11,614 nt of DNA from Deinococcales bacterium (GCA_043730305.1 JAYTKL010000416.1:1-11614), one strand, 5' to 3'; positions 1-11,614 are shown, counted from the first letter of the stretch. The notes: generated from the letters alone by a model not told the origin. A program made the numbers and translations.

Positions 1-444
1 CAGCAAAACTCTCGATTCGTATCATCATCTTGTCAAAGAACTCACCCGCTCGAGTTCCTTCCCTTGCGGGGGGCGCTCTCGAAGGCGGCGATAAATGTAT
101 CACCCAAGTTGGGATGTGTCAACACCTGATGTTTTGGGTTTGGACTCGAGTTGTAAAAGATTGATTTTTTACGTCAGGGACAAGTCCAGGTAAGCCAGTG
201 GAATTTGAGGGATAAAACTCAAGCTTCGAGAACGCGTCATTCTTGAAGCCCGAGATTATTATTTTTGGGGTTTTAGAAAATTGTTCGTGATTGCAGAAAA
301 AGCAGCGATTGTGCTTGCCCCTCTCATTCCCAACTTTACTGAATTCTCGAGAGATAAAAATTTCTGTGCTGGACTTGATTCGTTTTAAAACATTGAAAGA
401 AACTGGTGGCATTATGATTGGTTGTCTTAAAACAACCGCAGTCT

Positions 445-1206
445 TTACTGCACGGTCTGTTGGATTTCGATTGCGCCGTAAATCTCGGGTTGTTCAACCT
501 CGAGTTCTCCAGCACGAACGCCCTCAAGCATGGCGCTGAATAAAACGGTGCGTTCGCCCCAGTCGGTGGCGGGAATGTCTGCAAAGAAGAATTTTTTGAG
601 CTTTTGACTGAAGACACGTAGACGCTCGAGAGCTTGGGGAAGTGTTAAGCGGTCATGGGCGAGGTCAAACAGGTTGACTTCGCGGACGCGGCGCTTGGCG
701 GCTTCGACCAGATCGCCGATGCTTTGGGTGAGTGGGCGCATTTTGCGCGGAAGGTTGATTGGTACGGGGCTGGCAATCAGCATTTTTGAACGTTCTTTGC
801 GGCGGTCACGCAAGAACGAGATTGCACCCTCGAGTTGCGCCAGGGCTTCGACGCCTGAGAGGACATCCTCGAGTGAGGCATCAATTTCATCGGCGTCTCC
901 ATGATGAACTTTAATGGGGCGCGGCAGCAACAAACGCGCTTTGAGTTCAATCACGCCAGCCAAGTGCGGCAGGGCTTCGGACGCCAAGTCCAAACTGCCG
1001 ATGCTGAGAACCTCGAGTTCGGTGCGAAAATTTTCAAAACGCAGCAACACGGCGCGGGTCAACTCGAGGAGCGGCACAAAAGCGGGTTCGAGCTTGCCAG
1101 CACGCAACGCGGCGGCAAGCTCGAGCAGCGTGCCTTCAAAACCTTCAAAACGAGCAATGAAGGTGATCTCGAAGGTGTCTATTGGCTCGAGGATGGCTTG
1201 GGTCAT
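445..1206 (-). CDS. scpA: Segregation and condensation protein A (ScpA, kleisin of the SMC complex)
   Basis: 253 aa. N-terminal FEGFEGTLLELAAAL...LEP region resembles the ScpA FEGPLDLLLHLI motif. Central ..LDLASEALPHLAGVIELKARLLLP resembles ScpA ELDIASEYL...LLSIKSRMLLP. The ATG at 1204-1206 overlaps the trpS stop TGA (1203-1205) as ATGA, indicating translational coupling. Confidence 0.8.
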   Translation of the reverse strand: MTQAILEPIDTFEITFIARFEGFEGTLLELAAALRAGKLEPAFVPLLELTRAVLLRFENFRTELEVLSIGSLDLASEALPHLAGVIELKARLLLPRPIKVHHGDADEIDASLEDVLSGVEALAQLEGAISFLRDRRKERSKMLIASPVPINLPRKMRPLTQSIGDLVEAAKRRVREVNLFDLAHDRLTLPQALERLRVFSQKLKKFFFADIPATDWGERTVLFSAMLEGVRAGELEVEQPEIYGAIEIQQTVQ

Positions 1207-2219
1207 TGGCTGACAGGACGGATTGAATTGGGGCGCAATAAACCAATCGCGTCACGAACCTCGAGCATCGTCTCACGAGCAATTTTCTGGCAGTGTTCTG
1301 CGCCAGAAACCAAAGCGTCGGTGACTTCATGCGGGTGAGCTTGAAGGTGCGCGGCTCGAGCTTGAATCGGCTCGAGGGTTTCCATCAGACCGACCATCAG
1401 GCGTTTTTTGCAATCAATACAACCAATGCCGGCGGTACGGCAACCCGTGTCCACTTCTTGAATGGTCTCGAGGCTCGAGAAGAGCTTATGGTACGAGAAG
1501 ATCACACACTTTTCTGGTGTTCCAGGGTCGTTGCGGCGCACCCTAGCGGGATCGGTGGGCGCAACCCGAATTTTCTCCCAGAGTGCGGTTTGAGGCTCGA
1601 GCAACTCGAGGGTGTTGTTTTTGGATTTACTCATCTTGCCCGAATTGTCCAGACCAGGCACTCGAGCGGCGCTTTTGTCGATGCTGGCTTTGGGTTCTGG
1701 AAAGACAGGATTTTCGGGAGAGAACCTGGCGTTAAAACGCCGCGCGACCTCACGGGTGAGTTCGATGTGCTGAATTTGATCCTCGCCGACGGGAACGGTA
1801 TCGGCTTTGTAAAGCAGAATGTCGGCGGCTTGAAGCACGGGGTACATCAGTAAACCTGCCAGAACGCTGTGTTGTTCGGACTTATCCTTGAATTGCGTCA
1901 TGCGCTCAAGTTCGCCGAGCGGGGTTTGGGTACTGAAGACCCAGCCAAGTTCGAGGTGTTCTGGTACGTGTGACTGTGCGAAAAGCACAATTTTGTTGGG
2001 GTCAAGTCCCGCCGCCATGTTCGCCAGCGCCGCGTCGAAGGTGAGTTTCCCAAGCTGTTCACGGTCATGAGGAATGGTGATGGCGTGATAATCCACAATG
2101 CAAAAAATTGCGTCCTTACCGATTTGCTCACCAATTTTGACCCAGTTGCGGATTGCGCCCAAGTAATTGCCGATGTGCAAGTCGCCGGTTGGTTGAATGC
2201 CAGAAAAAACACGTTTCAC
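1203..2219 (-). CDS. trpS: Tryptophan--tRNA ligase (TrpRS, class I aaRS)
   Basis: 338 aa. N-terminus KRVFSGIQPTGDLHIGNYLGAIRNW carries the HIGH-type motif (HIGN) and a KMSKS motif (GKMSKSK) is present. The start codon is GTG (the + strand reads CAC at 2217-2219). Confidence 0.9.
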   Translation of the reverse strand: MKRVFSGIQPTGDLHIGNYLGAIRNWVKIGEQIGKDAIFCIVDYHAITIPHDREQLGKLTFDAALANMAAGLDPNKIVLFAQSHVPEHLELGWVFSTQTPLGELERMTQFKDKSEQHSVLAGLLMYPVLQAADILLYKADTVPVGEDQIQHIELTREVARRFNARFSPENPVFPEPKASIDKSAARVPGLDNSGKMSKSKNNTLELLEPQTALWEKIRVAPTDPARVRRNDPGTPEKCVIFSYHKLFSSLETIQEVDTGCRTAGIGCIDCKKRLMVGLMETLEPIQARAAHLQAHPHEVTDALVSGAEHCQKIARETMLEVRDAIGLLRPNSIRPVSQ

Positions 2220-2362
2220 GGCTCGAGTATACCGCCCATTTGAGATTTGCTTTGAGACCAGAGAAGTGGTTGAACTCGAGTGCGGGGTAATTCAATTTGA
2301 TTATCTCGAGTTTCTTTTTCAAACTAAAAAATAACTATTTTCACTTAAAACGAAAATTATAC

Positions 2363-2392
2363 TTAACAAATTATAAGATTAGGTTTTATAGT
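2363..2392 (+). promoter_or_regulatory. Candidate sigma70-type promoter for the 64-aa ORF: -35 TTAACA (2363-2368), 18-nt spacer, -10 TATAGT (2387-2392). It lies in the AT-rich divergent region shared with trpS.
   Basis: Hexamer matches read directly from the sequence. The AT-rich 2320-2400 block also contains TATAAT-like hexamers on the minus strand that could drive trpS. Confidence 0.3.
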
Positions 2393-2411
2393 ATTTCCAG
2401 GAGGCAGGAAA

Positions 2412-2606
2412 ATGAACAACCAAACCGAATGGGCACTCAGCGTCAACCGTCAGCACCTCGAGCAACTCCTGCACGACGCAGACAACCACCGTCAACTTCA
2501 AAGCGCTCTCGGCAACTGGCGACACCAACTCGCTCAAACCCTACAAGCCTGGGCAAAAAAACTCGAACCAGAACTCGAGCTTCAAACAACCAGAAAAATG
2601 GCATAA
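2412..2606 (+). CDS. Hypothetical small protein (64 aa, hydrophilic, predicted helical)
   Basis: ATG preceded by AGGAGG about 8 nt upstream (ccaggaggcaggaaaATG). Stop TAA at 2604-2606, followed by a hairpin. I recognise no domain. Confidence 0.4.
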   Translation: MNNQTEWALSVNRQHLEQLLHDADNHRQLQSALGNWRHQLAQTLQAWAKKLEPELELQTTRKMA

Positions 2607-2608
2607 AA

Positions 2609-2630
2609 AAAGGCATCCGAAGATGCCTCG
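2609..2630. terminator. Intrinsic terminator hairpin AGGCATC-cgaa-GATGCCT between convergent genes. On the minus strand it is followed by T7, so it mainly serves the peroxiredoxin gene.
   Basis: 7-bp perfect stem with a 4-nt loop at 2611-2628. An A7 tract lies immediately 5' on the + strand, which reads as a T7 tail on the minus strand. Stops of flanking genes are at 2606 (+) and 2650 (-). Confidence 0.6.
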
Positions 2631-2649
2631 AGATTGAGCAAAAGTTTTT

Positions 2650-3186
2650 CTAACCGCAAGAAACAGTACCGCTCAACACCACCTTGCAATCGCCTTTTTG
2701 CTTCACGAACTCGAGATTCTCAGCCGCATCATTGACCGCGTTGACACCACGTTTGATGGCGTTCACCTTGCCCGAAGGCGCGATAATCACCGTGTCGCGG
2801 CTGTACAACCCAAACCCCGAAGCAACATCGAACGCCTTTGCCAACTCGAACTTGGTATCGGGGATTTGCGGGATTTTTAGCGCGTACTTTTTAACAAAAT
2901 CACATTGTTTGCCGCTCGCATCGTTCGAGACGCCGTACACCACCGCACCCGCATCCAAAAAATCTTGGTAACGCTTGGTGTACTCGATATTCTGCGCCGT
3001 GCAACCACTTGTAAAAGCCCGAGGGTAAAAAAACAGCACAATCCACTTTCCCTTGTCTGCCTCGAGCTTGATGGTTTTGCCAAACGAATCCTTGATGGTC
3101 GGCAGCGGCGCGAGTTCGCCGACTTTTAACGCCAGGACGAGGCTCGAGCAAACCAGTACAGCCAGAAATGCGAACAGGATTTTCAT
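2650..3186 (-). CDS. Bcp/PrxQ-type peroxiredoxin (AhpC/TSA redoxin family) with an N-terminal signal peptide
   Basis: 178 aa. VLFFYPRAFTSGCTAQ matches the Bcp/PrxQ active site F-T-P/S-G-C-T-x-Q with the peroxidatic Cys. The N-terminus MKILFAFLAVLVCSSLVLALKVG is a hydrophobic signal-peptide-like segment. There is no Cys at +5, so this is probably a 1-Cys or atypical 2-Cys enzyme. Confidence 0.8.
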   Translation of the reverse strand: MKILFAFLAVLVCSSLVLALKVGELAPLPTIKDSFGKTIKLEADKGKWIVLFFYPRAFTSGCTAQNIEYTKRYQDFLDAGAVVYGVSNDASGKQCDFVKKYALKIPQIPDTKFELAKAFDVASGFGLYSRDTVIIAPSGKVNAIKRGVNAVNDAAENLEFVKQKGDCKVVLSGTVSCG

Positions 3187-3231
3187 GACTCGAGTCTAGT
3201 CCTTTTGCTTAGGATATTTTGTAAACTGGCT

Positions 3232-4074
3232 TTAAGTTCTGTGATTTCCAGAAAGTTTCACGGGAACTTGCAACTCAATCACGCAAGGCACACCCTCGCC
3301 GTAACCCTCAGGCATCTCGAGATACACCTGACGCACCGCCCCAACAGTGCTGTAACCATTTTCTTCGACCCAAGCGAGCAAGCCAAGCAAGGCATCTTCA
3401 ACTTTTTGCCATTCGTGTACACCCTTAAACTCGAGGTATGCAGCCATCGGCACACCTGCCAGTTTATAAACCTTAACCAGGTCGCTTTCTGGGATTGGTT
3501 TCTCGAGCATTTGCGCGACTTCCATCTTCCAGAAATCATCTTGGGTTGGATGCGCAATATTGATCTGCGGCAAGGCACTCTGAACGCCGCATTGTGCCAG
3601 ATGGTCGAACAAAACCAAATAATAATTTTTGAGTGATCGAACCTTTTCCTCGAGCACATCAAGGTCAGGATTGCCGACAGACGCGACCAAGCAAGCGGGC
3701 AGCGCTTTGAGATTGACTGAATAATCAAACATGTTGTTCTCCTGACCGATGCGTTCAAGCCTGAGTTCGACTTGTTCGAGCCGATTTTTTTGTTCCAAAA
3801 TATGGGTTTCCAGTTCGGCTTTGCGCAACTCGAGCAAGTCCTTTAAGCGTTCTGGCGCGAAACCGTTGGCGGTTAAGGTCGTAATTTGCTCGAGTGAAAA
3901 TCCCAGGTCACGCAATGCCAGAATGCGGTTGAGTAACGCCATCTGACTGACGCCGTACTCACGGTATCCGGTCAGAGAATCAATACGCGTTGGTTTGAAC
4001 AAACCAATCTCGTCGTAATGACGTAACGTTCGGGTAGAAACTCGAGCCAGATGCGCAAGATCACTGATTTTCAT
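3232..4074 (-). CDS. MerR-family transcriptional regulator with a C-terminal GyrI-like (BmrR/TipA-type effector-binding) domain
   Basis: 280 aa. N-terminal MKISDLAHLARVSTRTLRHYDEIGLFKP is a canonical MerR HTH. A coiled-coil linker (LKDLLELRKAELETHILEQKNRLEQVELRLERI) follows, then a roughly 150-aa C-terminal domain typical of GyrI-like ligand binding. An SD (AAGGAAG) sits 4 nt upstream of the ATG. Confidence 0.85.
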   Translation of the reverse strand: MKISDLAHLARVSTRTLRHYDEIGLFKPTRIDSLTGYREYGVSQMALLNRILALRDLGFSLEQITTLTANGFAPERLKDLLELRKAELETHILEQKNRLEQVELRLERIGQENNMFDYSVNLKALPACLVASVGNPDLDVLEEKVRSLKNYYLVLFDHLAQCGVQSALPQINIAHPTQDDFWKMEVAQMLEKPIPESDLVKVYKLAGVPMAAYLEFKGVHEWQKVEDALLGLLAWVEENGYSTVGAVRQVYLEMPEGYGEGVPCVIELQVPVKLSGNHRT

Positions 4075-4106
4075 GTTGACTTCCTTTTGTTTGAGCGCTC
4101 GAGAAT

Positions 4107-4137
4107 CACAATGGACGTTTCCGTAACGTAAAAGTCA
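4107..4137 (-). promoter_or_regulatory. MerR-type promoter/operator for the merR-prxQ operon. On the minus strand: -35 TTGACT, a 19-bp spacer containing the dyad ACGTTacggaAACGT, then -10 CATTGT.
   Basis: Minus strand reads cgcTTGACTtttACGTTacggaAACGTcCATTGTgattc. A 19-bp spacer with a centred inverted repeat is the hallmark of MerR-regulated promoters. The -10 is weak but keeps A(-11) and T(-7). + strand coordinates: dyad 4114-4128, -35 at 4132-4137. Confidence 0.35.
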
Positions 4138-4172
4138 AGCGCCTACAAAGCACTCGAGAAGTAGAAACGAAC

Positions 4173-4200
4173 CTTGAATGATTGCTCATAAACCCTAAAA
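4173..4200 (+). promoter_or_regulatory. Candidate promoter for the secreted-protein gene: -35 TTGAAT (4173-4178), 16-nt spacer, -10 TAAAAT (4195-4200).
   Basis: Hexamer match only. The downstream gene at 4222 has no recognisable SD. Confidence 0.25.
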
Positions 4201-4221
4201 TTCTTCTCGTACACTCCTTCT

Positions 4222-5499
4222 ATGAAAAAGAACCTGCAACTCGCCGTTCTCGCCATCACCGTAGCTTTATCCAGCGCCAAAGCCACCGACGCAACCTTGT
4301 ACTACAACTTTGCCGAAATCCGCGAACCCGTGCAAATTACGGGCAACCGTTTCGATTGGTCTCCAGCCGCCGACCTTGGACAGTACCTTGTGCCTGGAAG
4401 TTTGGAACTCGAGTACCCAGAAATTTTTAACGTTAATCTTCTGCCTGCCAGCCAGAGTTTGTTGACGGCGTTTGAAGGCAAAGAAGTGCTGTTAAAACGC
4501 GATAACAAACTGGTCAAAGCCACTGTCATCAAAGCCAATATTGGCTTGTTTCAAATAGGCAACCAGTTTGTGCAAGCCAACGTTGCCGATGTGGTTTTTC
4601 CAACACTCGAGGGTGTGCGATTTGCCCCAACCTACTCGTGGACTTTGGGTGGCAGTGGCGGCTCGAGCGTGCTGACATACTTGACGAGGGGCATCACTTG
4701 GAGTCCACGTTATACGCTTGCCATTAAAGGCGATGATGCGAAATTAACGGGCTGGGCAGATGTCCAAAACGCAAGCGGTGTGGAGTACAAAACACCGAAA
4801 CTCGAGTTGATCGCTGGACAAGTCAATTTAAGTTCTGGAAATTACGACCAGAACGTGCAACCTTACGCCGTTAACGCCGCCGCCCCAATCGCCAAAGCCT
4901 CGAGCGACAGTGCGCCAAGCATCGAAGCCGCAGGTGAAAGCGCGGGTTTGCAGACCTTCAAATTTAACAGCCCTGCGACACTGGCAGCCCGCACCACGAC
5001 CAGCTTGCCGTTCATCAACACCAAAGCCAGCCTCGAGCGGAGTTTTGAGTATTACAGTGGTTTTAATGGCAGCCCAAAAATTGTGGTGCCACTCAGCCGC
5101 GTGTACAACATCAAAACCGATTCAGATTTGCCAGGTGGGGTCATGACCGTGCGTGAGGATGCCAGGGTGGTTGGGCAAGCTCGAATCTCTGACAATCCCA
5201 AAGCCGAAAAAGCCACGGTCAACCTGGGCGCAGATTTTGACTTACGCTTGACCCGCACGGTACAAACCCTGAGCCGCACGAATACCAACATCAAGTACAA
5301 AGTCAATTTCAGCATTACCAACACCAAATCCAGGGCAGTCACAGTCAAGATCAATGAGGTTTTGGGTGGGCAAAATTACGCGCTCGAGGCTGTGAAATTA
5401 CCGAACATCAAAAACAACGAAGAGGGCATCAGTGCGGTCAATACCCTGAAACCAGGCGAGAAGTTCGAGGCGACCTATACGATCACTTTCAAGTACTAA
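4222..5499 (+). CDS. Secreted protein of unknown function, probably the DUF4139 family (MuiA-like), with a cleavable signal peptide
   Basis: 425 aa. N-terminus MKKNLQLAVLAITVALSSAKA is a classic Sec signal peptide (AKA cleavage site). The mature part is Thr/Ser/Asn-rich and beta-rich. The segment LTYLTRGITWSPRYTLAIKGD resembles the DUF4139 core as I remember it. No SD is present upstream. Confidence 0.7.
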   Translation: MKKNLQLAVLAITVALSSAKATDATLYYNFAEIREPVQITGNRFDWSPAADLGQYLVPGSLELEYPEIFNVNLLPASQSLLTAFEGKEVLLKRDNKLVKATVIKANIGLFQIGNQFVQANVADVVFPTLEGVRFAPTYSWTLGGSGGSSVLTYLTRGITWSPRYTLAIKGDDAKLTGWADVQNASGVEYKTPKLELIAGQVNLSSGNYDQNVQPYAVNAAAPIAKASSDSAPSIEAAGESAGLQTFKFNSPATLAARTTTSLPFINTKASLERSFEYYSGFNGSPKIVVPLSRVYNIKTDSDLPGGVMTVREDARVVGQARISDNPKAEKATVNLGADFDLRLTRTVQTLSRTNTNIKYKVNFSITNTKSRAVTVKINEVLGGQNYALEAVKLPNIKNNEEGISAVNTLKPGEKFEATYTITFKY

Positions 5500-5513
5500 A
5501 AACCGCAACAATT

Positions 5514-5556
5514 CAAAAGCTCGAGAGGTTTTGGACTCTCGAGCTTTTGTTTTGAA
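5514..5556. terminator. Bidirectional intrinsic terminator between convergent genes: perfect 14-bp stem CAAAAGCTCGAGAG / CTCTCGAGCTTTTG, 8-nt loop, then TTTTG on the + strand.
   Basis: Stem 5514-5527 pairs with 5536-5549, loop gttttgga, T-rich tail 5550-5553. Flanked by the stop of the 4222..5499 gene (TAA at 5497-5499) and the stop of the DUF1801 gene (5559-5561, minus strand). The stem is built from two CTCGAG copies. Confidence 0.7.
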
Positions 5557-5558
5557 AT

Positions 5559-5981
5559 TTACGACTCTGGGTATTTCTCGAGCATGTGTTTTACCGAGCC
5601 TCGAATCAGTTTCTCGAGCGTGGGGAGGTCAACATCGGAGAGTTTTTTGATGTACAAACACGACTTTCCAACCACATGTTTTCCCAGTTGAGCACGTAAT
5701 GCCTCAAATTCTTCAAAACCACTGACGATGTAAAGCACGATATTTTGTTTGCGTGGCGCGAAACCAATTCGCATCCAATCGGCTTCGCGCCCAGAGGCGT
5801 ACCGGTAATGGTAAGTGCCAAAACCGATGATGCTCGCACCCCACATTTTGGCGCTCGAGTGGGTGGCGTCTTGCATGATCTGAACGATGGTCTGGCAATC
5901 GTTGCGAACCTGGTGATTTGGGATTGACTCGAGAAAATCACTTACGGAAGCATCCGTTAATTTGGTTTTGAGTTCTGCCAT
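5559..5981 (-). CDS. DUF1801 (YdhG/YdeI-like) domain protein
   Basis: 140 aa. KMWGASIIGFGTYHYRYASGREADWMRIGFAPRKQNIVLYI...GKHVVGKSCLYIKKLSDVDLPTLEKLI matches the DUF1801 core (MWG..iGFG.yhYkY.sGre.d...iGFspRK...vlY...GKh..gKsClYi..l.d.d...L..Li). An SD (AAGGA) sits 5 nt upstream of the ATG. Confidence 0.8.
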   Translation of the reverse strand: MAELKTKLTDASVSDFLESIPNHQVRNDCQTIVQIMQDATHSSAKMWGASIIGFGTYHYRYASGREADWMRIGFAPRKQNIVLYIVSGFEEFEALRAQLGKHVVGKSCLYIKKLSDVDLPTLEKLIRGSVKHMLEKYPES

Positions 5982-6038
5982 AACTGTCCTTACGCTTCAA
6001 TAGATTTTCAGAACGCAGCCTGTTTTTTTGTTGACAGC

Positions 6039-6067
6039 ATAATAGCGGCTTGGGTCCAAAACTTCAA
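6039..6067 (-). promoter_or_regulatory. Candidate promoter for the DUF1801 gene, read on the minus strand: -35 TTGAAG, 17-nt spacer, -10 TATTAT.
   Basis: Minus strand reads gattgaagTTTTGGACCCAAGCCGCtattatgc. + strand coordinates: ATAATA at 6039-6044, CTTCAA at 6062-6067. Confidence 0.25.
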
Positions 6068-6349
6068 TCACCCCAATCAGAACTGTCGAAGCCGTCGCCG
6101 AACGAATGCACAAACTCCAAGCTTTGAGCGTCAAACTTACGATTGTTGACTTTGACACGGGTTACTCGAGACTCAGCCATTTGTAGGGCTTGACGTTTGA
6201 TATTTTGAAAATTGATAGGTCATTTGTGATCGACCTCGGGCTACAATCTGAAATGTGATGGTTCTCGAGCGTCCAAAGGTGCATTTGGGAACGTTTTGTT
6301 GAAGCATCGCGTATCGTGATGCAAGAGGAAACCTCAATTCCTCTCGCAG

Positions 6350-6370
6350 TTGTCAAACACGCCTTGACAA
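6350..6370. promoter_or_regulatory. Perfect 7-bp inverted repeat TTGTCAA-N7-TTGACAA, about 70 bp upstream of the yqiJ-like/flotillin operon start. Candidate operator. Two small hairpins (6303-6321, 6323-6342) lie immediately upstream.
   Basis: Read directly: ttgtcaa acacgcc ttgacaa. The dyad half-site is itself -35-like (TTGACA). Confidence 0.25.
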
Positions 6371-6441
6371 GGCAATCAACTACAACACATTGATTCTCTA
6401 CTGCATCATATGTTTTGGAAAGTCACCCAAGGAGGAAACAC

Positions 6442-7089
6442 ATGGCATGGCTCGAGTGGTGGAATTTCATGTTTATTGCACCACTGGGTGCAGGAATCAT
6501 CATGGCGGTATTGGTCGTGTTCTCTGGAGCGTTCTCGAGCGACAGTGCAGGACATGGACACGGTGAAGCTGCCGACACAGCCGATCATGACGGACATTTT
6601 GATGGCGGTCATGGCGATTCAGATCATGGTAAAAGCTTTGATCTTTTCGCCTGGTTTGGCATCGGACGCGGCGTAAGTATCAGTGTAATGCTGCCAATTC
6701 TTTTGGCTGGCTGGGGGCTGACTGGATTTTTGAGCAATTTAATTCTCGAGCCAACCTTGCGTTTTCCTCAATTGTTCAGCGCTATCAGTGTGATCGTGGC
6801 TTTTCTAGGCTCGAGTTTTATCGGACGCAACTTTGCCCAGGGTTTTATTCAGTTTGCCGATCAAAATCGTAAAACCAACATTCAAAGCGCCGAACTGGTC
6901 GGTTGTTTCGGTTCGAGCGTTTTTGAAATCAGCAACGATGGTGGTGCAGCCAACATCAAAGACCCTTTTGGCAACATCCACCGTGTCAGTGTGATCAGTC
7001 GCGGTGAGACCATTGCCGCCAACCAAGCCGTTCGGGTGCTCGAGTATCAACGTGGGATTTATGTTGTACAGGAGGAAGTCAATGATTAG
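6442..7089 (+). CDS. NfeD-short / YqiJ-like inner-membrane protein (DUF1449, OB-fold C-terminus), partner of the downstream flotillin
   Basis: The ORF track starts at 6415, but the ATG at 6442 is preceded by GGAGG 7 nt upstream, giving MAWLEWWNF... (216 aa). It has three predicted TM helices and a His/Asp-rich loop (aa 34-63). The C-terminal domain ..DPFGNIHRVSVISRGETIAANQAVRVLEYQRGIYVV resembles the E. coli YqiJ/NfeD beta-barrel. Its stop TAG (7087-7089) overlaps the flotillin ATG (7082-7084) by 8 nt. Confidence 0.75.
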   Translation: MAWLEWWNFMFIAPLGAGIIMAVLVVFSGAFSSDSAGHGHGEAADTADHDGHFDGGHGDSDHGKSFDLFAWFGIGRGVSISVMLPILLAGWGLTGFLSNLILEPTLRFPQLFSAISVIVAFLGSSFIGRNFAQGFIQFADQNRKTNIQSAELVGCFGSSVFEISNDGGAANIKDPFGNIHRVSVISRGETIAANQAVRVLEYQRGIYVVQEEVND

Positions 7090-8887
7090 TTTTGTATTAA
7101 TTGCGTTGTCCATCCCGTTCTTTGCCTTGTCCTTGTTTGGCGCTTCGTTCATCTCGACCTGGGGTGCCATCAATTCTGGCATTACTGGTGGACTGGGACT
7201 GCTGTTCTTGCTGGTTGGTTTGGCAGCTTGGGCGTACACGCAGTTTTACATCAAACCAAGCGCCAACCTGGCGTATGTTCGCACAGGTCTGGGAGGACGC
7301 ACGGTCTTCATTGACAAAGGCGGATTCTTTATTCCAGTCGTACACAGGCTGGTCGCCGTCAACCTCGAAACCCTCAAGCTCGAGGTGGAACGCAAAGGCT
7401 TGGATGCCCTGATCACCAAAGACAATTTGCGCGTCGATGTCAAAGCCGAATTCTACATTAAAGTGCATCCCGAAGAAGATGCAGTCATGAACGCCAGCCG
7501 TTCCTTGGGCGAAAAAAGCGTGACTGCCCAAGAAGTGGCGCATCTGGTGTTTGAAAAACTGGTTTCGGCGCTGCGGTCTGTTGCCGCCACCAAAGATTTG
7601 GTCGAGATTCACTCGCAGCGCAACGCTTTTGCCAGTGGTGTTCAAGACTTGGTTCGGGCTGACCTTGAACCAAACGGTCTGAGCTTGGAATCCGTGACGA
7701 TTTCTAAACTCGATCAAACCAATCAAGATTTGCTGTCAGACACCAATATTTTTGACGCGCAAGGCAAACGCAAAATCACCGAAATCACCCAGGAAGCCTT
7801 GGTTGAACGCAACCGCATTGAACAAGAAGCCAGACGGCAACTGACCATCAAAAATGTCGAAATTGCAACCGAAGTGCTGGCACTCGAGCGTTCCAAAGCC
7901 GAAGCCGAAGCATCACAACAATCTGAAATTGCCAAAGTCCAAGCCGAAAAACATCGAGAAGCTCAAACATACCGTTTTGAACAGGATCGTCAAATCAAAG
8001 AAGCCGAAATCACGATGGAACAAGCGGTGCAAACAGCCACCATCGAACGCGATTTGCAAGTGATCTTAAAAGAACAAGAGCGCGAAAAAACCAATATTGA
8101 ACGCGAAAAAGTGATCGAGGTCGCACAACGCGAACGTGAAATTGCCGTGACCGATGCCGAACGCCGCCGTGCCGATGCCGAAAAACTGTCCTTAGAATCG
8201 CAAGCCGAACGTGAAAAAGCCAATCAGAGCATCACCACCGTTTCGCAACTGGCACAAGCCGAACGTGAAGCCCAAACCAAACTGATTGCCGCCAAACAAG
8301 CCATTGAACAAGACCGCTTTAAACAACAAACCAATGCCGAGGTCAACGCCTTTAGTGAAGTCAAAAAATCTGAAGCTCAAAAACAAAGTGCCGAACTTGA
8401 CGCCACCGCAACCTTGCGCCGTGCCGAAGCCGAATCCAGCGCCAAAGAACAAATGGCTCGAGGCGACACCGCCGTGAAACGCGTGGACGTTGACATTGCC
8501 AGGGAAAACGTTGAAGTCGAACGCGCTCGGGTTGAAGTTGCCCGTCAAGCGCTCGAGAACAAACAAACTTTCTCGGCAGCCGCGCTCGAGTTTGAATTGC
8601 AAAAACTACGGATTGAAGCAAACCGTGACGTGCAAGCAGAGATGGCAAAAGCCCTTGGGCAAATGCTTTCAAAAGGCAACATGAACATTTACGGCGACCC
8701 TGAAACCCTGGCAAAAGTGAACCAACAATTCATGAATGGCATGGGAGTTGGTGCAGCCGTAGACGGCACGCTGAGCGGCTTAGGGCTGGATAGCAAAGAT
8801 GTTTTGCCGCAACTGGCAGCCTTGCTGACACAACTTGGTGTTGTCATGAATAAACCAACGATAGATAAAACCGAAAAGGAAAAGTAA
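7082..8887 (+). CDS. Flotillin-like SPFH/Band-7 protein (YqiK/FloT family) with a long EA-rich coiled-coil
   Basis: The track ORF starts at 7004, but the in-frame ATG at 7082 follows AGGAGG (caggaggaagtcaATG), giving MISFVLIALSIPFFALSLF... (601 aa). It has an N-terminal membrane hairpin, an SPFH domain (YVRTGLGGRTVFIDKGGFFIPVVHRLVAVNLETLKLEV), and then about 300 aa of E/A/K/Q/R heptad-rich coiled coil typical of flotillins. Stop TAA at 8885-8887. Confidence 0.9.
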   Translation: MISFVLIALSIPFFALSLFGASFISTWGAINSGITGGLGLLFLLVGLAAWAYTQFYIKPSANLAYVRTGLGGRTVFIDKGGFFIPVVHRLVAVNLETLKLEVERKGLDALITKDNLRVDVKAEFYIKVHPEEDAVMNASRSLGEKSVTAQEVAHLVFEKLVSALRSVAATKDLVEIHSQRNAFASGVQDLVRADLEPNGLSLESVTISKLDQTNQDLLSDTNIFDAQGKRKITEITQEALVERNRIEQEARRQLTIKNVEIATEVLALERSKAEAEASQQSEIAKVQAEKHREAQTYRFEQDRQIKEAEITMEQAVQTATIERDLQVILKEQEREKTNIEREKVIEVAQREREIAVTDAERRRADAEKLSLESQAEREKANQSITTVSQLAQAEREAQTKLIAAKQAIEQDRFKQQTNAEVNAFSEVKKSEAQKQSAELDATATLRRAEAESSAKEQMARGDTAVKRVDVDIARENVEVERARVEVARQALENKQTFSAAALEFELQKLRIEANRDVQAEMAKALGQMLSKGNMNIYGDPETLAKVNQQFMNGMGVGAAVDGTLSGLGLDSKDVLPQLAALLTQLGVVMNKPTIDKTEKEK

Positions 8888-8907
8888 CTCTAAAACTTTA
8901 ATCAGAA

Positions 8908-8945
8908 CAAAAGCTCGAGAGACTAAATCTCGAGTTTTTTTGATT
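8908..8945. terminator. Intrinsic terminator after the flotillin gene: stem CAAAAGCTCGAG / CTCGAGTTTTT (11 bp including one G-U), 9-nt loop, U-rich tail.
   Basis: 8909-8919 pairs with 8929-8939. The T7 run at 8935-8941 is followed by gattt. Two CTCGAG copies again form the stem. Confidence 0.65.
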
Positions 8946-8979
8946 TAACATTCTCGAAAAGATCGGCTAAACTAAAACC

Positions 8980-9528
8980 ATGACCATGCTCGAGTCAAAA
9001 ATCATGACCGCACACGAATACCTCGAGTTTGAGAAAAGCTCTGAAATTCGTCATGAATTCGTGGACGGTAAACTGTACGCGATGGCGGGCGAAACACTGC
9101 TTCATGACGACATTGTTTTGAACATCGTCGAAGCTTTACGTACAACCGCTCGAGCAAAAAGTTGCCAATTGCACGCCACCAACATTCAAACGCTGGTCAA
9201 AGGCAACCGTTACCGTTACCCAGACGTTGTTCTGACTTGCGAAACCATTCGCAACCCGCGTTTGATCCAAGCGCCATGTTTTATTCTCGAGGTGCTTTCA
9301 GACAGCACCGCCGACGTGGATCACGGCATTAAACTCGAGGAGTCCACCAACATACTTTCGTTGCAACGTTACGCCATCGTTTCACAAAACACCCGTCAAG
9401 TGATTGTTTACAAACGCGAGGGCGAACGTTGGACGTTTGAAGTGCTGCTCGAGAACGGTGAGATTGAAATTCCTTGCCTCGAGACGAGCCTGACGCTCGA
9501 GCAAATTTACGCCAACCTCGAGTTTTAA
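8980..9528 (+). CDS. Uma2-family (DUF820) putative restriction-endonuclease-like protein
   Basis: 182 aa. N-terminal ..TAHEYLEFEKSSEIRHEFVDGKLYAMAGETLLHDDIVLNI.. matches the Uma2 pattern (EYL.lE...e.r.Ey.dGei..Ma). It also has the PD-(D/E)xK-like D..E.K arrangement (YPDVVLTCE...LEVLSDST). No SD is present, so the true start could instead be M3 or M9. Confidence 0.75.
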   Translation: MTMLESKIMTAHEYLEFEKSSEIRHEFVDGKLYAMAGETLLHDDIVLNIVEALRTTARAKSCQLHATNIQTLVKGNRYRYPDVVLTCETIRNPRLIQAPCFILEVLSDSTADVDHGIKLEESTNILSLQRYAIVSQNTRQVIVYKREGERWTFEVLLENGEIEIPCLETSLTLEQIYANLEF

Positions 9529-9617
9529 CCCGAGTACGCCATTTGGCTGATCGAACCTCGAGATACTTTTTAGTGTACACTCTTGAAAATACTTTTTGCA
9601 TTGGAGGTGACACGAAT

Positions 9618-9749
9618 ATGAAAACAACTCAGCCCCTTTTAACCCTCGCTTCGAGGCTCTTCGCCCTGTCTTATAAATCCAGGAGTCAAAGTGATTCATA
9701 CCGTATCAGCCTTACCATGCCAGTGCAATTCTCAACACTCGAGTTTTAA
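9618..9749 (+). CDS. Hypothetical 43-aa Ser/Thr-rich peptide: MKTTQPLLTLASRLFALSYKSRSQSDSYRISLTMPVQFSTLEF
   Basis: ATG at 9618 is preceded by a near-perfect SD, GGAGGTGA (9603-9610), with a 7-nt spacer. Stop TAA at 9747-9749 lies 18 nt before the RIO kinase ATG. 13 of 43 residues are Ser or Thr. I find no homology. The call rests on the SD strength and on position. Confidence 0.3.
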   Translation: MKTTQPLLTLASRLFALSYKSRSQSDSYRISLTMPVQFSTLEF

Positions 9750-9767
9750 AACCCAGTCGGTAGCATC

Positions 9768-10685
9768 ATGAGCCGCCGTCCAAGCACCCGCGACAGCAAC
9801 CTGTCCTGGGATGAAAACCGTGAAGCCTTCCAAGATCGCGGGCATCGTCACGCCCGCAAACCACCGCGTCGGCGTAGCGTTGCCGCGCTCTTATCCGAAA
9901 ATCAAACAGATTACAAAGTCGAAGAACACGTTAAGTTTGACGACCCAGGCTTGCAAGAACTGTTCGAGCGCGGTTTGATTACTGATCTTTTATGGGAATT
10001 AAAATCTGGTAAGGAAGCCACCGTCTACGTGGTCGAAGGTAAAGAAGGACTTGCCGCCGCCAAACTTTACATTGACTCTCGAGTGCGGTCTTTCAAGAAC
10101 GATTCGCTTTACAGAGGCTCGAGGTTCATTGGTGATAAGCGCATTCAGAAAGCCATTGAATTGCGCTCGAACACTGGCGTTCAAGTTCAAAATATTTTGT
10201 GGGTGCAAGAAGAATTTGGGCAAATGCACGCGCTGCAAAACGCTGGCGTTCCAGTGCCGCGACCCATTGCGTTAGCCGAAGCTGGCAACGTGATCTTGAT
10301 GGAATTTATTGGTGACGAAAGCGGGGCTGCACCGCGACTCTCAGATGCCAAACTTTCTAAAACTCTTGCCGAAGAAGCCTTTCGTCAGAGCGTTCACAAC
10401 ATGGGTTTGATTCTGGGCGCGGGACGGGTTCACGGCGATTACAGCACCTTCAACATTTTGTGGTGGCAAGAACGCTGCATCGTGATTGACTTCCCACAAG
10501 TCGTGCTGGTGCAAGAAAACCCCAGCGCCAACATGATTCTCGAGCGTGACGTGGCGGGTTTGTGTCGCAGTTTTGGGCATTTTGGGTTGCGTCCAGACCC
10601 AGTGGAGACTTTAAAGCAAGTGTGCCGTGTGGCTCGAGAGGTGCAGATTGCCAAACCGTCTGAAGAACTGGCATTGGTGCTTTAA
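9768..10685 (+). CDS. RIO1-family atypical Ser/Thr protein kinase
   Basis: 305 aa. ATVYVVEGKEGLAAAKLY corresponds to the RIO nucleotide-binding loop plus the conserved Lys (STGKEA.VY..........AVKIY). HGDYSTFNILW corresponds to the catalytic loop HADLSEYNIL. IDFPQVV corresponds to metal-binding IDxxQ(S/A)V. ILERDVAGLCRSF corresponds to the RIO C-terminal FL.RD..N...FF. Catalytic Lys and both Asp residues are conserved. Confidence 0.8.
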   Translation: MSRRPSTRDSNLSWDENREAFQDRGHRHARKPPRRRSVAALLSENQTDYKVEEHVKFDDPGLQELFERGLITDLLWELKSGKEATVYVVEGKEGLAAAKLYIDSRVRSFKNDSLYRGSRFIGDKRIQKAIELRSNTGVQVQNILWVQEEFGQMHALQNAGVPVPRPIALAEAGNVILMEFIGDESGAAPRLSDAKLSKTLAEEAFRQSVHNMGLILGAGRVHGDYSTFNILWWQERCIVIDFPQVVLVQENPSANMILERDVAGLCRSFGHFGLRPDPVETLKQVCRVAREVQIAKPSEELALVL

Positions 10686-10741
10686 ACGCGATCTACATCA
10701 AATTCGATCTTTCATCTTTCTTTTACCAGAACGGGGTTTTC

Positions 10742-11488
10742 ATGAATATTCCAGAAATGAATTATGACGGTGCATTTTACAAAGCCATTGGTGATTTTCA
10801 ACGCGAGAAGTATCTCGAGGAGGGTTACACGCAAGGCACAGTTCAAGAGGTGGATTTTTTGATTGAGCATCTGAACCTCAAACCAGGCAGTCGAATTCTT
10901 GATGTGGGTTGCGGCACGGGTCGTCACTGTCTCGAGTTCGCCAAACGCGGTTTTGACATGCTTGGCGTGGACATTTCAGATGGTCATATCAATGTGGCGA
11001 AACGATTGGCAAGCGAGCAAAATTTAAACACCGAATTTATGGTTTTAGACGCTCGAGCCATGAATTTTAACGCCGAGTTTGATGCCGCAATTTGTTTGTG
11101 CGAAGGTGCGTTTGGCATTGCGGGAGACGAAATGGGACATCGCCAAATTTTGGCAGGCACGGCTCGAGCACTGCGTTCCAACGCGCCGTTTGTCCTGACG
11201 GCTATCAATGCCTTATCTGCTGTGCGAAACCTACCCAATCCAGGTACGATTCGTTTTGACCCGTACACACTGACCTCGTACAGCAAATGGACTCCAACCA
11301 GTCCCGAAGGTGAAACTCGAGAATTTGATGGGTACTGCACTGCTTTTACTTACCGAGAATTGAAGTGGTTGCTTGAGGGCGCAGGTTTTGCAGTGCAACA
11401 AGCTTATGGCTGCGTGGCAGGACGCTTTGAGAGCAAAGTATTGACGCTCGAGGATATTGAAATCATGATGGTGGCGCATAAAACTTAA
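10742..11488 (+). CDS. Class I SAM-dependent methyltransferase (small-molecule/UbiE-like type)
   Basis: 248 aa. Motif I ILDVGCGTGRHCLEFAKRGFDMLGVDIS. The acidic residue ending beta-2 and motif II/III spacing (MVLDARAMNF....AAICLC) match Rossmann-fold MTases. There is no DPPY/NPPF motif, so it is unlikely to be a DNA N6A/N4C MTase. Confidence 0.85.
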   Translation: MNIPEMNYDGAFYKAIGDFQREKYLEEGYTQGTVQEVDFLIEHLNLKPGSRILDVGCGTGRHCLEFAKRGFDMLGVDISDGHINVAKRLASEQNLNTEFMVLDARAMNFNAEFDAAICLCEGAFGIAGDEMGHRQILAGTARALRSNAPFVLTAINALSAVRNLPNPGTIRFDPYTLTSYSKWTPTSPEGETREFDGYCTAFTYRELKWLLEGAGFAVQQAYGCVAGRFESKVLTLEDIEIMMVAHKT

Positions 11489-11568
11489 ACTCGAGCCTTC
11501 ACATCCGTCATTCGGCAGATGCAAAACCGCAGCTCGAGCGGTCAGAATAGGCGCAGGAGATTCAAACC

Positions 11569-11614
11569 ATGCAAATTCGTGCGTTTACCGAAAATGATTA
11601 CGAAACGGTTGCCA
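11569..11614 (+). CDS. 5' end of an ORF (MQIRAFTENDYETVA...). The N-terminus resembles a GNAT-family acetyltransferase, but the ORF is too short to call.
   Basis: ATG at 11569 is preceded by GGAGA, 8 nt upstream (gcaggagattcaaaccATG). The ORF runs off the window end. Confidence 0.3.
   Translation, partial: MQIRAFTENDYETVA

Follow-up and report, generated by a model that had tools for sequence, protein, structure and literature searches.

The DNA analysed here, called the window in the following, is a stretch of 11,614 nt (49.4% GC) from a Deinococcales bacterium, and it corresponds to positions 3,467-15,080 of a 54-kb metagenome contig (ENA ERZ28573519, scaffold_419). The subject of this study is the palindromic hexamer CTCGAG, which is present as 88 dispersed single copies over the whole window (1..11614), in every gene and in most of the intergenic spacers. 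Twelve complete genes were called and annotated with Pfam and NCBIfam. They code for a ScpA-like protein, TrpRS, an open reading frame (ORF) of 64 aa, AhpC/TSA, a MerR-family regulator and DUF4139, followed in our list by DUF1801, a 215-aa ORF, a Band7/flotillin-like protein, Uma2, a RIO1 kinase and a small-molecule SAM methyltransferase. Searches for structured RNA and tRNA with Rfam and ARAGORN gave no RNA genes in the window. The non-coding stretch at 1..444 holds 3 CTCGAG and lies between the ScpA-like gene and a 23S-5S-tRNA operon found 74 nt to the left of the window and directed away from it (23S rRNA, 5S rRNA and partial tRNA operon, L001 12294-15685, on the window's minus strand and to the left of window position 1).

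The highest site density of any gene in the window is that of the Uma2-family (PD-(D/E)xK-like) gene for a putative endonuclease at 9004..9528 on the plus strand, with 8 sites or 15/kb. The lowest is that of the Band7/flotillin-like gene (7082..8887, plus strand), which has 5 sites or 2.8/kb and contains all of the three longest CTCGAG-free gaps (504-574 nt).

Two hairpins are built around pairs of sites. The first is an inverted repeat at 5509..5554, between the convergent genes for DUF4139 (plus strand) and DUF1801 (minus strand), with 19-nt arms that are 89% complementary, an 8-nt loop and one CTCGAG in each arm (5520 and 5538). It is flanked by T-runs on either side and looks like a bidirectional terminator. 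The second is the top-scoring terminator-like site of the window (8909..8939, plus strand), downstream of the Band7/flotillin-like gene; here the stem is made of two CTCGAG copies (8914 and 8929), with 12 pairs, a 7-nt loop and a TTTTT tail. Judged by these structures, pairs of nearby copies have been co-opted to build putative terminator stems. They are the two clear cases of inverted pairs between genes in the window; by our estimate, close pairs do not exceed the number predicted from the intergenic density.

Excess of CTCGAG in the window

The initial annotation, which was made from the sequence of the window alone, put the number of CTCGAG hexamers at about 90 against about 3 expected, spread over every gene and over intergenic DNA. 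The exact count is 88, or 7.6/kb, with at least two sites in each of the 12 genes and 21 sites in non-coding DNA. In 200 dinucleotide-preserving shuffles of the window the mean number of CTCGAG was 2.19 (standard deviation 1.51) and the maximum was 8, so that none of the 200 reached 88 and the ratio of observed to expected (O/E) is about 40. Markov models of order 0, 1 and 2 predict 2.8, 2.3 and 5.7 copies. The other frequent hexamers, for instance GCTCGA, are all sub-words of extended CTCGAG sites, and the runner-up among the palindromes, TCATGA, is found in 13 copies.

It had also been proposed that the flanks are not conserved and that there is no long repeat family. The flanks in the window do show a weak bias, with G at -1 and C at +6, and a repeat search found that the repeat families around CTCGAG span at most about 15 nt. 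As there is no longer unit and no conserved flank, each site is an independent hexamer rather than a copy of some longer repeat. A dispersed repeat or a miniature inverted-repeat transposable element (MITE) is thus ruled out: nothing extends beyond about 15 nt around the hexamer, and 76% of the sites are intragenic.

The closest known phenomenon is the highly iterated palindrome (HIP) of cyanobacteria, that is HIP1 (GCGATCGC) and its alternates GGGATCCC, TCGATCGA, GGCGCC, GCSGC and RCCGGY.

Distribution over one clade of Deinococcota

Relatives of the window species were located through TrpRS identity, and regions not linked to trpS through homologues of Uma2. The clade loci sampled in this way amount to 137,951 nt pooled from at least six related genomes with GC contents of 49-63%. 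They hold 755 CTCGAG (5.5/kb), which is the top hexamer at every locus and recurs every 130-220 bases across the sampled clade genomes. Another 9.9 kb of the source contig adds 75 sites (7.6/kb). Five relatives with TrpRS identities of 95, 82, 80, 79 and 75% (L085, L083, L086, L082 and L166, with GC contents of 50, 53, 60, 61 and 58%, respectively) have 6.3, 4.5, 8.2, 4.6 and 4.8 CTCGAG/kb. L085 is largely syntenic with the window, whereas the neighbourhoods of L082 (on a 5.08-Mb contig), L083 and L166 differ beyond trpS and scpA. Two regions are unlinked to trpS: the dcw cell-division cluster of an NCBI metagenome-assembled genome (MAG) labelled 'Deinococcales bacterium' (L297) has 4.7 CTCGAG/kb, and the pheST/slpA region of a 775-kb JGI contig (L298, GC 63%), one gene of which carries SlpA/SLH S-layer domains, has 6.0/kb.

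The initial annotation had allowed for a merely local enrichment, with an O/E near 1 over the genome. Computed with a second-order Markov model and a masked background, the ratio was 21-68 in five clade loci and 26-27 in the two trpS-unlinked regions, and the excess is present in all clade regions sampled. A local island or an assembly artefact is ruled out by the like density on the further 9.9 kb of contig, in independent assemblies and in unlinked regions.

Relatives with a TrpRS identity of 72% or less have an O/E of about 1 or lower and show no excess. A Deinococcales MAG at 72% identity (L294, GC 68%) has 0.83 CTCGAG/kb; L295 (69%) has 1 CTCGAG in 16.6 kb; L168 and L169 (67%) have 1 each in 12.7 kb; L170 (67%) has 0.3/kb, and L002 (65%) has none. 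Among the matches listed, 80 more distant TrpRS-matched loci from species-representative genomes also show no excess, the maximum being 1.95/kb in DNA of more than 70% GC. In the TrpRS scans of genome and metagenome contigs L086 was the only clade member among the matches listed, so that these loci serve as a negative control. The closest named relatives by TrpRS and Uma2 are Deinococcales, Deinococcus and Thermaceae. The excess is found at TrpRS identities of at least 75% and is lacking at 72% and below, and it is therefore a shared derived character. CTCGAG hyperabundance is a derived trait of a single uncultured clade of Deinococcota, and it persists there across a 14-point range in GC content. 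We found no earlier report of it in the full-text literature, of which our coverage was incomplete. It should be noted that the locus pairs L291/L292, L083/L084 and L166/L167 are identical sequences and carry no strain-level polymorphism.

Could the excess nevertheless be an artefact of assembly or library errors, of a dispersed repeat, or a by-product of codon usage and of Leu-Glu content? High-GC genomes favouring CTC and GAG do reach about 2/kb, and a repeat is indeed present in one relative. L166 carries an intergenic hairpin element, GAACACCGTC...GACGGTGTTC, resembling the repetitive extragenic palindromic (REP) elements, with 21 core copies in 21 kb which often abut TTCTCGAGA (examples at 6230-6360, 11880-12060, 13020-13150 and 14130-14260). 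In this locus 24 of the 102 CTCGAG sites lie within 45 nt of the element, and the flank preference TCTCGAGA of L166 is explained by the element beside its sites. Neither the window nor any other clade locus has this element, however, and no repeat family is found in the window. The likeness of CTCGAG to REP, bacterial interspersed mosaic elements (BIME), REPIN and MITE families lies in the abundance of palindromic DNA, in the hairpins between genes and in the presence of such an element near some sites of L166. Those families are at least 20-40 nt long, intergenic and spread by transposition; CTCGAG is a bare hexamer found for the most part inside genes, and there mostly in frame. The same enrichment appears in independent ENA, JGI, NCBI and Logan assemblies, with sites in frame within intact conserved genes, and the window has only 49% GC and outside the motif prefers GAA, TTG and CTG. 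An artefact of any of these kinds was tested for, is not supported and must be considered extremely improbable.

Other short palindromes of the window are strongly avoided: GGCC is found 0 times, CCGG 4 times and CTAG 3 times, where the base composition predicts about 45 of each, and of the 64 palindromic hexamers 38 do not occur at all. There is no GGCC in a 20.7-kb part of the source contig (L291, contig positions 4208-24954), in L085 (12.3 kb) or in L297 (14.5 kb). It is reduced in L298 and of ordinary frequency in L082, L083 and L166, and the 23S rRNA holds 3 GGCC and 14 CCGG. This suggests a lineage-specific restriction-modification pressure of the HaeIII or HpaII type, acting beside the opposite trend of CTCGAG. 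In the non-enriched outgroup L168/L169 it is GATC that is strongly depleted (9 and 5 copies in about 12.7 kb each). Beside gyrB, L168 carries a cluster (9412-11820) of an N6_N4 methyltransferase, a MutH/MvaI_BcnI-like endonuclease and a D12-class (Dam-like) methyltransferase. By its gene content this appears to be a restriction-modification system for GATC, and the avoidance of the site is as expected for one.

To the right of the window, at L291 14681-15233, there is a toxin-antitoxin pair (PhdYeFM/YoeB) in the midst of five genes for GNAT acetyltransferases. The YoeB gene has 0 CTCGAG in 282 nt and is too short to tell whether it was acquired recently.

In some viral contigs in IMG/VR, too, CTCGAG ranks first or second in frequency among the hexamers (L260 and L274; also L254 and L275). 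L274 (GC 70%) has 45 CTCGAG in 8.2 kb, which take up 45 of its 76 CTC trinucleotides, with tandem CTCGAGCTCGAG and with abutting copies being common; L260 (GC 64%) has 44 in 8.3 kb and codes for a portal protein and a terminase. These contigs were considered as phages of the clade and rejected, as they are closest to actinobacteriophages (about 27-37% identity) and show no link to the clade. There may be a similar CTCGAG enrichment in an unrelated high-GC host-phage system.

Pressure on DNA, protein and RNA

According to the initial annotation the signal is not made at the protein level, and the sites in genes are mostly read in frame as CTC-GAG. Both statements hold. Of the 67 coding sites in the window 49 are in frame, 10 in phase 1 and 8 in phase 2, and over 88 kb of clade DNA with gene calls the counts for frames 0, 1 and 2 are 264, 63 and 58 (69% in frame 0). 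The density is higher in non-coding DNA, with 21 sites in 1,927 nt of the window (10.9/kb versus 6.9/kb coding) and with 8.4/kb versus 5.0/kb over the 88 kb. The codon-shuffling check proposed in the annotation was run in a synonymous version, in which the proteins and the already distorted codon usage are kept, and gave 7.0 +/- 2.4 sites where 67 are observed. A protein-level or codon-usage artefact is ruled out by this shuffle, by the intergenic excess and by the sites in all three frames.

The motif also changes how peptides are written. In the window 49 of the 64 Leu-Glu dipeptides (77%) are spelled CTCGAG, and outside this dipeptide Leu is preferably coded by TTG and CTG (CTC 12%) and Glu by GAA (GAG 24%). 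The peptides able to host CTCGAG in frames 0, 1 and 2 are Leu-Glu, [ASPT]-R-[VADEG] and x-S-[SR], respectively. On the source contig the hexamer is found in 75, 53 and 42% of them, and in two relatives in 56-68, 28-62 and 33-34%, as compared to 3, 0 and 0% in an outgroup of similar GC content. CTCGAG thus occupies about a third to three-quarters of the places which the proteins permit, and does so in all three frames.

The predicted skew of the proteome towards Leu-Glu was confirmed, with 64 dipeptides versus 27 expected in the window and 118 versus 50 on the source contig. In TrpRS there are 4.8 Leu-Glu per protein in the clade and 3.5 elsewhere (P = 1e-5; 118 sequences with equal Leu and Glu content). 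The CTCGAG pressure overrides the clade's own codon preferences and raises its Leu-Glu content. Genes for membrane proteins (EamA, TerC, MIP) tend to have few sites, which presumably reflects the charged Glu that an in-frame site brings in. The Leu-Glu counts of the annotation for single proteins were roughly right (8 in the 182-aa ORF of Uma2, or 7 in the called 174-aa gene; 10 in the ScpA-like protein; 7 in TrpRS), but the richness of Uma2 is in part inherent to the family, since Uma2 homologues everywhere have 5-8 Leu-Glu each. The search gave 381 Uma2 homologues at E <= 1e-10; the best 120 listed are 49-94% identical, and the few named ones are Deinococcales or Thermaceae. Cyanobacteria, in which HIPs are known, likewise have a greatly enlarged number of Uma2 genes, perhaps by coincidence.

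The rRNA operon beside the window serves as a control. The 23S rRNA gene has 1 CTCGAG in 2,878 nt where the local density predicts 22 (Poisson P = 7e-9), while the two short spacers of the same operon have 7 in 344 nt. That the gene is nearly free of sites and its spacers are dense shows that the pressure is general and is halted only by strong functional constraint.

This contrast also bears on a function at the RNA level, in which CUCGAG would be a structural, processing or translation signal in transcripts. In its favour are the best terminator-like hairpins, whose stems are each made of two copies, and a strong in-frame bias of 69-73%, which could suggest a translational role. The frame bias, however, follows from which peptides are tolerated, and the sites use all three frames and are densest in non-coding DNA, including spacers which do not look transcribed. 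The 23S rRNA, which is the structured RNA of greatest abundance, has hardly any of them, and close pairs inside genes are under-represented. We consider an RNA-level function very improbable.

Across the pooled clade loci the spacing of the sites is near-random (coefficient of variation 0.65-1.28), and gaps of more than 1 kb exist. Gaps of 30 nt or less are found at about half the exponential expectation (56 versus an estimated 115 or so), and directly abutting copies are absent from the clade. The claim that the palindrome seeds hairpins throughout transcripts has therefore to be qualified: site pairs do form the two best terminator-like hairpins, but pairs less than 30 nt apart occur at about half the expected rate. 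The deficit may reflect selection against intragenic hairpins.

The sites are conserved beyond their surroundings. These comparisons were made with a single genome pair and about 6 kb: in 5,965 aligned nt with 84% identity between the window species and L085, 37 of 51 sites (73%) are kept, compared to 41% of other hexamers. In codon alignments of 7 orthologues CTC is kept in 25 of 31 cases inside the motif and in 15 of 33 outside (P = 0.005), and GAG in 28 of 31 and 17 of 27, respectively (P = 0.025). The same codon-conservation test was used by Xu et al. to argue for selection on HIP1 (PMC5861425).

Comparison of orthologues, which the annotation had called for, also shows how sites arise: they are gained by point substitution without indels. 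The TrpRS alignment of five clade lineages has 13 CTCGAG positions, most of which are unshared. The CTC-GAG (Leu-Glu) at 1605..1610 on the minus strand (alignment column 230) is Leu-Glu in the window species and in L085, Leu-Asp in L166, and Ile-Gly (ATCGGT/ATTGGC) in L083, L082 and all three outgroups. With Ile-Gly in relatives and outgroups alike, the gain of the site has changed the TrpRS protein. At 1467..1472 (minus strand, column 276) the Leu-Glu of the window is matched in L085, whose TrpRS is 95% identical, by Ile-Asp coded by ATCGAT; this site is a recent gain in which the TCGA core is retained. A third CTC-GAG at 1260..1265 (minus strand, column 345) is common to four of the five clade lineages; the fifth has Leu-Glu as CTGGAG, and the outgroups have Gly-Glu or Gln-Glu. 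Sites are thus retained above background while lineages gain new ones independently. The annotation had suspected that the process is still active, and gains and losses between lineages, some with replacement of residues, fit a process that is active or was so recently.

CTCGAG might also be the site of an abundant clade-specific DNA-binding protein, such as a nucleoid-associated, chromosome-organising or repair-loading factor, and be kept up by selection for the density of sites, as was proposed for HIP1 by Xu et al. from its periodicity. A palindrome suits a dimeric binder, the sites are conserved above background, and the twofold lack of gaps below 30 nt together with the absence of tandem copies fits diminishing returns from adjacent sites. 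The spacing is otherwise near-random, however, no candidate protein is known, and selection against intragenic hairpins, or constraint on the proteins, would account for the lack of short gaps just as well. This explanation seems to us quite unlikely.

Known systems and possible mechanisms

The HIPs of cyanobacteria, including the hexamers GGCGCC and RCCGGY, are found at about 1-2/kb, each with a cognate methyltransferase (PMC4390886). HIP1 has an O/E of 15-300, is conserved beyond codon effects and is found outside coding sequence as well as in every frame within it (PMC5861425). According to evidence summarised in a 2026 preprint (10.64898/2026.06.24.733823), natural transformation is raised when the donor DNA carries HIP1, in a manner dependent on methylation by DmtC, and the preprint proposes a role for HIP1 as an uptake 'watermark'.

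CTCGAG is, like the HIPs, a short palindrome containing GC, dispersed singly without conserved flanks or indels, present in all frames and in non-coding DNA, and with an O/E that falls within 15-300 (PMC4390886, PMC5861425). The motif is specific to a lineage and may differ from one lineage to another, its sites and codons are conserved above background, and the commonest one-off variants are at the outer positions. In the sampled regions we find what defines a HIP in the sense of Elhai 2015 as regards the top oligomer, O/E, dispersal, frames and non-coding DNA, and conservation, and CTCGAG agrees with the HIP class in every sequence-level respect tested. The HIP1-like enrichment seen by the initial annotation is in this way supported. 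Three differences should be mentioned. The host belongs to the Deinococcota and not to the Cyanobacteria, the only phylum in which HIPs have been described so far; the motif is absent from Elhai's list; and the density is 4.5-8/kb as compared to about 1-2/kb (PMC4390886), with a visible effect on protein composition.

A second likeness is to the uptake sequences of Pasteurellaceae (USS) and Neisseriaceae (DUS). CTCGAG resembles these in being clade-specific and hyperabundant in genes and spacers, in its preference for a frame that encodes tolerated peptides, in its effect on the proteome and, in two cases of the window, in inverted pairs as putative terminators. The accumulation of USS and DUS is explained by molecular drive in naturally transformable bacteria. 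They are 9-12 nt long with an extended consensus, non-palindromic and present at about 1/kb, and their uptake specificity has been shown experimentally, whereas CTCGAG is a palindromic hexamer in which only the 6-mer is fixed and the weak flanks differ between lineages.

The initial annotation had offered as possible mechanisms an orphan XhoI-type methyltransferase together with a Vsr-like bias, or an uptake or recombination signal. We propose that CTCGAG is a HIP-class palindrome and that the force behind it is a methylation-linked mark of self DNA which spreads by transformation and recombination, a reading to which we give a probability of roughly 45%. A sequence-specific force acting on DNA would install and preserve CTCGAG almost wherever the encoded function tolerates it. 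By analogy with HIP1 the hexamer would be the target of a clade-specific DNA methyltransferase, and the methylated CTCGAG would mark DNA as 'self' and so favour uptake or integration of conspecific DNA in natural transformation. Motif-rich alleles would then spread by recombination, in a molecular drive of the kind seen with DNA uptake sequences, and constraints on protein or RNA would in the end halt it. Among the cultured Deinococcota, Thermus and Deinococcus are known for natural transformation; we know of no report of sequence-specific uptake in this phylum.

A more far-reaching form of this proposal is that CTCGAG is a methylated self-DNA watermark which steers transformation and recombination to conspecific DNA, and that it would be the first HIP- or uptake-like system outside the Cyanobacteria and Proteobacteria and the densest known. 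We regard this as possible but rather doubtful.

Several observations weigh against the proposal of a methylation-linked mark. A Pfam search found no DNA methyltransferase genes in about 138 kb of clade DNA. M.TaqI, which recognises a TCGA core, was used as a query after its sequence had been checked against PDB 1AQJ, 1AQI/2ADM and 2IBS; the best 120 matches listed were all TaqI orthologues (56-98% identical), none on clade contigs, so that the search was uninformative and does not show that such a gene is lacking. The hexamer is much shorter than the known uptake sequences of 9-12 nt. At 3-8 times the density of any HIP, CTCGAG may be a case to which the analogy does not apply. Conservation above background is equally expected from a repair bias restoring lost sites. 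Finally, 'genome-wide' stands here for the sampled regions pooled above.

A repair bias of this kind is the basis of a different explanation, modelled on Elhai's proposal for HIP1: a ratchet of repair or gene conversion without any function, in which a CTCGAG methyltransferase together with methyl-directed or very-short-patch-like repair would correct mismatches within half-sites and beside them towards the motif, so that sites pile up as a by-product of mutation. The excess is largest in the least constrained DNA, and the signal behaves as a pressure bounded only by function would; the replacements at conserved residues look slightly deleterious; and with tens of thousands of sites per genome selection on each of them would be very weak. 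The words that differ from CTCGAG by one transition also bear on the ratchet. In the pooled clade loci TTCGAG/CTCGAA and CCCGAG/CTCGGG are found at about 2.2-fold and 2.3-fold the expectation, and the CpG-transition pair CTTGAG/CTCAAG, with a pooled O/E of about 0.8 (range 0.33-1.24), is the only transition class that is not enriched. One clade locus has a DUF559 gene between pheS and pheT (L298 6783-7178, minus strand; Pfam E = 6.5e-27), a family which we take to have a Vsr-like endonuclease fold, but DUF559 is widespread and its presence proves nothing. No Vsr or methyltransferase candidate was identified in the clade DNA.

The known example of such a bias is that of Dcm and Vsr at CCWGG in E. 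coli, where repair at the DNA level raises the frequency of a palindromic methyltransferase target. There the excess is small and the T-containing neighbours are depleted, which is the signature of a T:G bias at a single position. CTCGAG is in excess 20-70-fold, and no neighbour is clearly depleted. As no one-off neighbour is strongly depleted, a simple Vsr-type bias at a single cytosine is unlikely as the sole driver, and it could not yield a 20-70-fold excess. Taken together we find the ratchet, which with the DNA-binding protein is one of the two main rivals of our proposal, an unlikely explanation. The CTCGAG excess shares with restriction-site avoidance, which the window shows for GGCC, CCGG and CTAG and which is driven by restriction-modification systems, that the pressure acts on short palindromes genome-wide, with the opposite sign, CTCGAG being enriched and not avoided.

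What is new is the phylum and the motif of this HIP-class palindrome, together with a density 3-8 times that of HIP1; its mechanism we infer. HIP1 has been studied for about 30 years and opinions are still divided between selection, biased repair and a DNA-uptake signal, and as the known HIPs all come from one phylum, lineage history has been inseparable from mechanism. An independent case in the Deinococcota, with another motif and a sharp boundary, turns the purpose of highly iterated palindromes into a comparative question. Complete or near-complete MAGs are available on both sides of the boundary, and it can be asked which genes (methyltransferase, nuclease, competence) were gained with the palindrome.

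The extreme density shows how far a pressure at the DNA level can move codon choice and protein sequence. This is of relevance to models of codon usage, to the detection of horizontal transfer, and to binning and annotation of this clade in metagenomes, where the density of CTCGAG is a cheap marker for its contigs. Digestion with enzymes of the XhoI type would leave fragments of about 150-200 bp, unless methylation protects the sites. If the watermark reading is true, the drive fills more than half of the synonymous opportunities and rewrites conserved residues, and it would have arisen independently of HIP1, as a natural replicate in which the purpose of these palindromes can be tested.

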